Origin: an uncultured bacterium
Lineage (GTDB): Bacteria > Patescibacteriota > Patescibacteriia > Patescibacteriales > UBA12465
Length of the DNA stretch: 62,851 nucleotides
Direction: 5' to 3'
Assembly (NCBI GenBank): GCA_903945435.1
Contig: CAJAVM010000023.1
Span: forward strand, 1 to 62,851
Shown: piece after piece, positions 1,263 to 2,555 of the stretch
How the letters are laid out: each line of letters begins with the position of its first letter
Position numbering within the stretch: the first letter of the stretch is position 1
Position numbers and translations under genes: made by a program
The notes under the pieces: generated by a model
What the model was told of the DNA's origin: nothing
Seen by the model: the letters and a program-made list of their open reading frames with translations, nothing else
Databases searched by the model: none

Positions 1263-2555
1263 CTAATAAGCGTTTTGCTCTAAACTTGCTAAATCTTTTT
1301 TAATCGCCTCAACTAAAAGCTCTGGGTTAGCAAATTTTTCCAACTCTCTAATTTTCCCTAAAACTTCTACCTTTAATTCTTCGCCATAAATATCACCCGA
1401 AAAATCTTTAATTAAAATTTCTAAAGATACGGCCTCGCGAAATACATCTTTAAAGCCAAAATGCATTAAACCAAAGTAAGTTTTATTATCAAAATTAATT
1501 TTTACCGCATAAACACCGTGAGCGATATCTAAATCAACTTTATCTAAATTAGCTGTTGGATAACCTAAGAGCTTTCCTCTTCCCTGGCCATGAATAACGC
1601 AACCAGAAAAAATTGTTTTTTTAGGACGCCCTAAAATAGAAATCTTAAAAAAAGCAATTAGTAAAATTCCAAGAGCAATTAACTGCGGAATATTAAGAAA
1701 ATTATGATTAAAAAAGTAGTCTAAAACTAACGCGGAAAATGGCCAAAATAATTCTAAGACAGTTGCTGCCGAAGCCGGGACTCTACGCAAACCAAAATAA
1801 TAAATAAACATCGAACCAGCGCCAGAAGTTAAAACAATTATACCGAGCAGGCTCCATTGCTCCAGACTTACCATCCCAAAATTTTTAAAAGGAACACTAA
1901 CGGCAATAAGTAAAAAAGCGAGCACTGAAGTTAAGCCAAAACGCAAAGCCGCAACCGCTTTATAATCAAGATGATTAGAAATTCGTTTCCCGAAAACCGT
2001 CGAAGAACCAAAAGCAAAAGCGGCAATAAAAGCAAACAAAGCACCATTATGAGCCCAATCAATATTTGCAAAACTTAAACCAGTTTTTGCGAAAGCAATA
2101 AAATAACTAGCCATAATTGCAACAACTGCCCATTTATAAAAGCGCCTATCTAACTTTTCCTTAAGAATCAGGCGCGCAAGCAATAAAGCAAAAATTGGTT
2201 GTAATTTTTGTAAAATAACTACAGTCGCAAAACTTACTTCACCATCCATCGCCGCAAAAAAGGCTTTAGTAATAAATATTGTTCCGATTAAACCACCAAA
2301 CATACTAACCCAACCTAAAGCGAGCCAACTTTTTGTGCTAAGTGCTTTAATCTTATGCCAATACATAAAAATAAAAGGGCTCAACACAATGAAACCTAAG
2401 ATATGTTCTAAAAAAACAACCAGCTCCGCTGGGAGAACATAAAATTTAGGACGAATAAACAAACCATCAATACTCCAAAATAGTGCCGCTAGCATAATCG
2501 CCAAAGAACCGGCAATCTGTCCTGATTTCAAACCTAATTTATTATTAATAGACAT
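1263..2555 (-). CDS. EamA/DMT transporter fused to a C-terminal riboflavin kinase domain
   Basis: About 10 hydrophobic helices in two EamA-like repeats, then GxVIHGQGRGKLLGYPTANL, GVYAV, E..I.DFSGDIYG and IRE.EKF motifs of RibF-type flavokinase. Confidence 0.85.
   Translation of the reverse strand: MSINNKLGLKSGQIAGSLAIMLAALFWSIDGLFIRPKFYVLPAELVVFLEHILGFIVLSPFIFMYWHKIKALSTKSWLALGWVSMFGGLIGTIFITKAFFAAMDGEVSFATVVILQKLQPIFALLLARLILKEKLDRRFYKWAVVAIMASYFIAFAKTGLSFANIDWAHNGALFAFIAAFAFGSSTVFGKRISNHLDYKAVAALRFGLTSVLAFLLIAVSVPFKNFGMVSLEQWSLLGIIVLTSGAGSMFIYYFGLRRVPASAATVLELFWPFSALVLDYFFNHNFLNIPQLIALGILLIAFFKISILGRPKKTIFSGCVIHGQGRGKLLGYPTANLDKVDLDIAHGVYAVKINFDNKTYFGLMHFGFKDVFREAVSLEILIKDFSGDIYGEELKVEVLGKIRELEKFANPELLVEAIKKDLASLEQNAY

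Follow-up and report, generated by a model that had tools for sequence, protein, structure and literature searches.

How bacteria that keep FAD enzymes and do not make riboflavin obtain their flavin is the question raised by one gene of an uncultured bacterium of the Patescibacteria. Nelson and Stegen (2015, PMC4508563) described Parcubacteria with no riboflavin synthesis, no ribK, ribL or ribF, no recognisable riboflavin transporter and no riboswitch, in which FAD enzymes are kept. The DNA analysed here, called the window, is a stretch of 62,851 nt (contig CAJAVM010000023.1 of assembly GCA_903945435.1). Near one end it encodes, on the minus strand, a 430-aa protein in which a membrane carrier of the EamA family continues in frame into a riboflavin kinase (RFK). 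No description of this carrier-kinase architecture was found in the literature. We consider it probable that the protein is a riboflavin salvage device in a single polypeptide, which would combine ImpX-type import with immediate phosphorylation and thereby trap the vitamin.

Architecture and reality of the carrier-kinase fusion

The gene and its parts are listed below with the evidence for each boundary or assignment.

1263-2555, minus strand: whole fusion gene, a single uninterrupted open reading frame (ORF) with an ATG start, 430 aa plus a stop codon (1263-1265)
1632-2555, minus strand: predicted ImpX-type EamA/DMT carrier, aa 1-308, with ten transmembrane (TM) helices, N-in/C-in (AlphaFold2 helices, Foldseek matches to DMT proteins, lysine plus arginine counts of the loops, reciprocal best hit)
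1617-1631, minus strand: linker GRPKK, aa 309-313 (AlphaFold2 secondary structure, in which TM10 and the first barrel strand of the kinase are about 5 residues apart)
1266-1616, minus strand: predicted monofunctional ATP-type riboflavin kinase domain, aa 314-430 (PF01687; PDB sequence matches and Foldseek matches to RFKs)
1548-1559, minus strand: PTAN motif, aa 333-336 (alignment to the Thermotoga maritima and Corynebacterium ammoniagenes RFKs)
1419-1421, minus strand: codon of Glu379 (SLEIL), the presumed catalytic base (conservation and alignment to solved enzymes)

The sequence-only reading of this locus had described one uninterrupted 430-aa ORF with about ten TM helices and a complete flavokinase at about 1263-1620, and the ORF list, Pfam and the structural model agree with it on each point. 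Pfam placed EamA in two stretches (98.3 bits, cut-off 28.2) and Flavokinase PF01687 at aa 314-426 (101.7 bits, cut-off 19.6). NCBIfam returned a generic DMT model, together with RibF models that matched over the C-terminal third only. Neither Pfam nor NCBIfam found a FAD_syn domain, the N-terminal flavin mononucleotide (FMN) adenylyltransferase (FMNAT) module PF06574, in the fusion protein, and the absence of a FAD-synthetase half noted earlier is thereby borne out.

The AlphaFold2 model of the protein, built with 48 homologues as input (pLDDT 84, pTM 0.79), consists of ten TM helices at residues 11-308, the GRPKK stretch at 309-313, and, from 314 to 427, a beta-barrel followed by a C-terminal helix. 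In Foldseek searches the membrane half matched the DMT fold (SLC35B1, the triose-phosphate translocator TPT 5y78, YddG 5i20 and LicB 7paf), and the barrel half matched solved riboflavin kinase structures. Because the carrier loops predicted to face inward carry 9 lysine and arginine residues and those predicted to face outward 2, the protein is assigned an N-in/C-in topology, in which the kinase domain is predicted to face the cytoplasm.

The kinase domain also had sequence matches in the PDB (1mrz, 3op1, 5a88, 1nb0). Its PTAN motif and Glu379, both pointed out in the sequence-only reading, align to the PTAN and catalytic Glu regions of the T. maritima and C. ammoniagenes RFK modules; Glu379 corresponds to the Glu of 'SVESFV' in C. 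ammoniagenes FADS (5a88) and of 'KYEVYI' in T. maritima. Residue conservation was scored across 48 fusion sequences. Within PTAN, Thr334 is kept in 48/48, Asn336 in 47/48, Ala335 in 46/48 and Pro333 in 35/48, and Glu379 and Arg403 are each kept in 48/48. Profile, barrel fold and conserved catalytic residues all agree with assignment to PF01687, and riboflavin kinase activity is predicted on that basis.

The fusion is real, and an assembly or frameshift artefact does not account for it. An identical 430-aa protein occurs on 10 contigs held at NCBI, JGI and ENA, and the architecture is kept in many genomes; a frameshift or chimera was ruled out on these two grounds. At least 120 homologues with 62-90% identity were found, and both Pfam domains are present in 120/120 of the matches listed. 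Other genomes of the same order contain 23 full-length copies. A scan of species-representative genomes added dozens more, mostly labelled Candidatus Falkowbacteria, with others labelled Komeili-, Magasanik-, Moranii- and Liptonbacteria and SR1. From a library of 1.84 billion representatives at 50% identity, the best 150 matches included 15 full-length fusion clusters and 9 fragments that span the junction.

The carrier and its genomic link to riboflavin

The sequence-only reading had cited RibN as a riboflavin importer of the carrier's family. Comparative genomics supports the link to riboflavin, and the closest characterised transporter among those compared is ImpX. With the ImpX protein of Fusobacterium nucleatum, an E. 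coli ribB mutant was able to grow again at low riboflavin (PMC4418817). Among Fusobacteriia, 81 of 121 genomes contain a single homologue of the fusion's carrier, with 29-40% identity, and an FMN riboswitch lies directly upstream of the homologue in 10 of the 20 loci tested. One of these loci, L154, shows in order an exact match to the 20-nt primer ImpXFw, an FMN riboswitch and the carrier gene; ImpXFw is the published primer used to clone F. nucleatum impX (PMC4418817). When the L154 product was searched against the source genome, it matched the fusion only (38% identity over the whole carrier, E 1.6e-50). In the reverse search the L154 gene was the only match in its own genome, and the source genome contains no other EamA paralogue. 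Because it is the reciprocal best hit of a riboswitch-controlled gene that bears the published primer, the transporter half is, by sequence, an ImpX orthologue rather than demonstrably a RibN.

The carrier family is also found beside riboflavin genes in other lineages. Cloacimonadota carriers that are 53-56% identical to that of the fusion are encoded by the last gene of an operon arranged FMN riboswitch-ribD-ribE-ribBA-ribH-EamA. Among 401 sampled genomes of Patescibacteria, the fusion was present in the source genome only, and about 26 others had an unfused orthologue with 30-40% identity. Flanks of ±5 kb were taken for 20 such split loci, and 12 of them contained a stand-alone RFK of about 120-140 aa within 5 kb of the unfused orthologue, in most cases as its immediate neighbour and usually upstream of EamA on the same strand. 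DPANN archaea encode the carrier directly after an RbkR-type protein, composed of a winged helix and a CTP-dependent riboflavin kinase (PF01982), and at one locus a RibL-like gene precedes both. Operons of this DPANN kind lie at L119:2843-4930 and L142:3346-4936. Furthermore, a metagenomic protein encoded on two contigs (L192:5001-6287, P0140) has the carrier family fused to PF01982, which occupies the C-terminal position as the kinase does in the fusion. Because one carrier family is joined in this way to two unrelated kinases that share riboflavin as their substrate, there is strong evidence that the fusion's carrier would likewise take riboflavin.

In another metagenomic protein of this family, P0192 (574 aa), the carrier is fused to a haloacid dehalogenase (HAD)-type hydrolase in place of a kinase. 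The substrate of this domain could be a phosphorylated flavin or a precursor.

Flavin supply in the source genome and distribution of the fusion

The source assembly, from a member of the Patescibacteria, amounts to 979 kb and is 97% complete. No lumazine (DMRL) synthase was found in this genome, FAD_syn (the FMNAT of RibF) gave no match in it above the cut-off, the FMN riboswitch model RF00050 gave no match anywhere in it at E <= 1, and Flavokinase matched one protein in it, the fusion itself. A hidden RibF or FAD_syn was also considered and rejected, the genome containing only two weak matches to the N-terminal part, both in small nucleotidyltransferases. By gene content, these absences mark the source bacterium as a riboflavin auxotroph with a single kinase, in agreement with the auxotrophy supposed in the sequence-only reading.

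A candidate for the step from FMN to FAD is a 137-aa cytidylyltransferase-like protein encoded outside the window, beside metK (G000:C1:46331-46741, equal to L002:1165-1578, minus strand). It matched PF01467 at 2e-11 and, weakly, the N-terminal part of FAD_syn, and its best PDB match was 3glv at 1e-18. The features by which it was compared with RibL-type enzymes were small size, a cytidylyltransferase-like nucleotidyltransferase type, the HxGH motif and a genomic link to riboflavin kinase. In 6 of 20 fusion loci the gene immediately upstream of the fusion encodes a homologue of this nucleotidyltransferase, and clusters of nucleotidyltransferase, RFK and EamA occur in 4 of 20 split loci. Of the 151 genomes of the order, 50 have an RFK, and 46 of these also have the nucleotidyltransferase, compared with 19 of the 101 that have no RFK (odds ratio 50, p 9e-19; since the genomes are related, such p-values overstate independence). 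Within the family it was found in 5 of 5 RFK-positive and 1 of 14 RFK-negative genomes. The protein is thus a candidate RibL-like FMN adenylyltransferase (FAD synthetase).

The fusion gene is flanked by two co-directional genes.

2559-2855, minus strand: DUF1294 membrane protein (PF06961), upstream of the fusion with a 3-nt gap
26-1258, minus strand: HI0933-like FAD flavoprotein (PF03486, 3e-81), downstream of the fusion with a 4-nt gap

With the HI0933-like gene the genome encodes at least one strongly predicted FAD protein, which shows the need of the source bacterium for flavin; its linkage to the fusion is not conserved. DUF1294 was found near the fusion in 1 of 20 other fusion loci, and the HI0933-like gene in the flanks of 0 of 20. 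The HI0933-like gene is present in 15 of 50 RFK-positive and 42 of 101 RFK-negative genomes (p 0.21). A functional tie of the two neighbours to the fusion was ruled out on the unconserved adjacency and, for the HI0933-like gene, the lack of phyletic association with RFK. In one genome of the same genus, homologues of DUF1294, ABC-F and HI0933-like genes lie within 6 kb of each other without the fusion.

Two other loci of the window lie farther along on the minus strand. At 5162-5830 it encodes a Vut_1 transporter (YhhQ-like, for a queuosine precursor), which has a 34%-identical paralogue on contig C1 and represents another salvage transporter close to the fusion gene. At 5857-7220 a Pif1-like helicase is broken into two overlapping ORFs in different frames, with the P-loop half at 6660-7220 and the 2B/C-terminal half at 5857-6756; the break may reflect a frameshift, a sequencing error or decay to a pseudogene.

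The fusion is patchy in distribution and confined mainly to one order, being present in 25 of 151 genomes of the order (two of the copies cut or partial), 5 of 19 of the family and 2 of 8 of the genus. In a tree of 121 carriers with SH-aLRT support, a clade with support of 100 unites 50 fusions with unfused carriers of one family of the same order and with carriers of Cloacimonadota and Neomarinimicrobiota, and the Cloacimonadota rib-operon carriers nest inside it. Its sister is a clade of Fusobacteria ImpX, Bacteroidota and DPANN carriers, with a joint node supported at 98. Two more groups of fused carriers branch off in other parts of the tree, and the well-supported branches require that fusion state changed at least three times. 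These changes, together with an approximately unbiased (AU) test that rejects a single fused clade (p 1e-13), rule out one common origin for all fusions. The tree of kinase domains, weakly resolved, also sets the Komeili- and Liptonbacteria fusions apart from the main group. By these trees the fusion was formed or broken up on more than one occasion. Homologues are not always separate genes, a case that the sequence-only reading had raised against itself; yet separate adjacent genes, usually RFK then EamA, are commoner than the fusion across the phylum.

The possibility that an ancestral pair of genes was simply joined by read-through was considered and set aside, as the common split order, RFK then EamA, is the reverse of that in the fusion. 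In a Daviesbacteria locus (L130:3968-5260) EamA, TAG, ATG and RFK follow one another without a spacer, in the fusion's order and one codon short. Some Falkowbacteria carry tandem fusion genes with about 45% mutual identity (L044:4971-7513, L043:3676-6256, L085:4001-6590), which may have diverged in substrate or regulation.

Riboflavin kinases of Patescibacteria were also observed in two other kinds of fusion. In one family the kinase is fused to the C-terminus of an ATP-binding cassette (ABC) ATPase (L175:234-1517, minus strand; L176:1496-2767, plus strand; L177:1427-2605, plus strand; L180:2219-3349, minus strand), and the gene adjoins a BPD_transp_1 permease and an NMT1/THI5-like binding protein, making up a RibXY-like importer. 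By its domains this is a second, independent importer-kinase fusion. In a further family riboflavin synthase (two Lum_binding domains) is fused to riboflavin kinase (L178:1559-2674, plus strand; L183:1407-2405, plus strand; also L179, L181 and L182), so that the kinase is joined to the enzyme that makes its substrate.

Proposed riboflavin trapping, other readings and known systems

In the salvage device that we consider probable, the carrier (aa 1-308) would let external riboflavin cross the membrane by facilitated import, and the kinase (aa 314-430), held 5 residues from the cytoplasmic end of TM10, would convert it to FMN with ATP. The kinase would keep free riboflavin low and so maintain the inward gradient, and uptake would be effectively one-way, by metabolic trapping, because FMN would be unable to leave through the carrier. 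FMN would then probably be adenylylated to FAD by the separate RibL-like 137-aa nucleotidyltransferase. The sequence-only reading had named a host as the source of the riboflavin, which is an assumption.

Several findings weigh against this account. The transport direction and the substrate of the carrier are predicted from homology at 38% identity to one complementation result and from genomic association, and the identity of the L154 gene as impX rests on the forward primer and the riboswitch, the reverse primer being absent within 3 mismatches. The fusion locus showed neither a riboswitch nor any other flavin-responsive element, and the 137-aa nucleotidyltransferase matched no FAD-synthase model above its curated cut-off. 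Moreover, 6 of the 8 genomes of the genus (G434, G492, G513, G532, G536 and G544) lack the carrier, the kinase and the 137-aa nucleotidyltransferase alike. Four of these six keep the HI0933-like flavoprotein, and therefore another flavin supply route must exist in the clade.

A closer coupling of the two domains than trapping implies is unlikely, though it is the likeliest of the alternatives. The kinase would dock on the cytoplasmic mouth of the carrier, take riboflavin from the inward-open site and release only FMN, so that phosphorylation would gate the carrier. The linker of only 5 residues fits such an arrangement, as do a two-domain model whose pTM of 0.79 suggests a defined mutual position, the fusion of the carrier family at the same end to two unrelated riboflavin kinases, and the repeated change of fusion state. 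Most relatives, however, are separate genes, usually with RFK preceding EamA, and because these relatives work as such, covalent coupling is not required. Close coupling is favoured by the shortness of the linker and by the recurrence of fusion, and the many split systems show that it is not obligatory. In its widest form this proposal makes the protein a vitamin group translocator outside the phosphotransferase system (PTS), in which the docked kinase would receive riboflavin without cytosolic release and the use of ATP would both drive and gate a passive carrier; with the RibL-like enzyme added, ultra-small bacteria and archaea would have in it a minimal supply line for flavin cofactors, built repeatedly and with either of two unrelated kinases. 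That form, too, we hold to be doubtful.

It is very improbable that the kinase-like domain serves mainly as a flavin or nucleotide sensor that regulates the carrier, for example by FMN or ADP feedback, with catalysis secondary or lost. RFK folds have been recruited for regulation elsewhere, as in RbkR, where a kinase is combined with a DNA-binding domain (PMC5397151), and post-translational control would be useful in a genome without a riboswitch. The catalytic Thr, Asn, Glu and Arg are nevertheless invariant or nearly so in the 48 diverged fusions, and no other riboflavin kinase was found in this genome, where an FAD protein and a candidate FMN adenylyltransferase are encoded as well.

Least credible is a carrier that exports flavin, or whose substrate is a flavin analogue or some unrelated metabolite. 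In favour of it, substrates vary widely across the EamA/DMT superfamily, in which exporters are numerous, the closest fold matches include nucleotide-sugar, triose-phosphate, amino-acid and choline carriers, and one relative is fused to a HAD hydrolase with no kinase. Against it, a genome that cannot make riboflavin has none to export, the FMN riboswitches upstream of orthologues turn their genes on at low FMN, as befits importers, ImpX complemented uptake experimentally (PMC4418817), and the family is linked to two different riboflavin kinases and to rib operons.

Under the trapping account, the fusion, the split RFK/EamA pairs and the RibL-like partner would give part of the phylum a salvage route that is concrete and open to testing. 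The range of ImpX would be extended from riboflavin producers to auxotrophs, to Patescibacteria, to DPANN archaea and to several other phyla, and better annotation would become possible for hundreds of proteins that now carry the label 'EamA family transporter' or 'riboflavin kinase'. Riboflavin becomes a candidate growth requirement for the cultivation of these organisms, and the fusion offers a natural construct for asking whether a covalently attached kinase can drive a secondary carrier.

Of the known systems, ImpX of F. nucleatum and Desulfitobacterium (Gutierrez-Preciado et al. 2015, PMC4418817) is closest to the carrier half. Both are 10-TM EamA carriers and reciprocal best hits, both contain the signature stretches LQKLQPIFA and FGS(S/A)TVFGKR, and the fusion carrier falls in one well-supported clade with riboswitch-controlled ImpX genes. 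ImpX stands alone, as a protein of about 300 aa controlled by an FMN riboswitch, and has been reported solely in bacteria that also make riboflavin (PMC4418817), whereas the fusion carrier is linked to a kinase, has no riboswitch and occurs in a predicted auxotroph. RibN of Rhizobium, Ochrobactrum and Vibrio shares with the fusion carrier the EamA superfamily and proposed single-component riboflavin import. Reports confine it to Proteobacteria and handle it as a family of its own, distinct from ImpX (PMC4418817).

The kinase half resembles the RFK module of RibF/FADS and monofunctional RFKs (1mrz, 5a88, 1nb0, 1n05) in Pfam family, barrel, the Thr and Asn of PTAN and the catalytic Glu. It differs from RibF/FADS in that it hangs on the C-terminus of a membrane carrier and has no FMNAT module, and for want of the N-terminal PF06574 the fusion does not belong with bifunctional RibF/FAD synthetases. 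From the archaeal RbkR/RibK kinases (PF01982) it is distinguished by its bacterial and eukaryotic ATP type, PF01687, an unrelated fold family. The 137-aa protein, a candidate FAD synthetase, resembles the small enzymes of the type of RibL, the archaeal FAD synthetase.

As for mechanism, the obligatory coupling of phosphorylation to translocation in PTS-like group translocators is hinted at here by the short linker and the recurrent fusions alone. Metabolic trapping is a known principle, exemplified by PnuC/NadR for nicotinamide riboside, LicB/LicA for choline, and riboflavin uptake with flavokinase in eukaryotes. These systems would share their logic with the fusion, a facilitator or secondary carrier followed by a trapping kinase, and LicB is itself a DMT protein and a fold match to the fusion carrier (7paf). 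In all three, carrier and kinase are separate proteins, whereas in the fusion they form one chain with a 5-residue linker between them.

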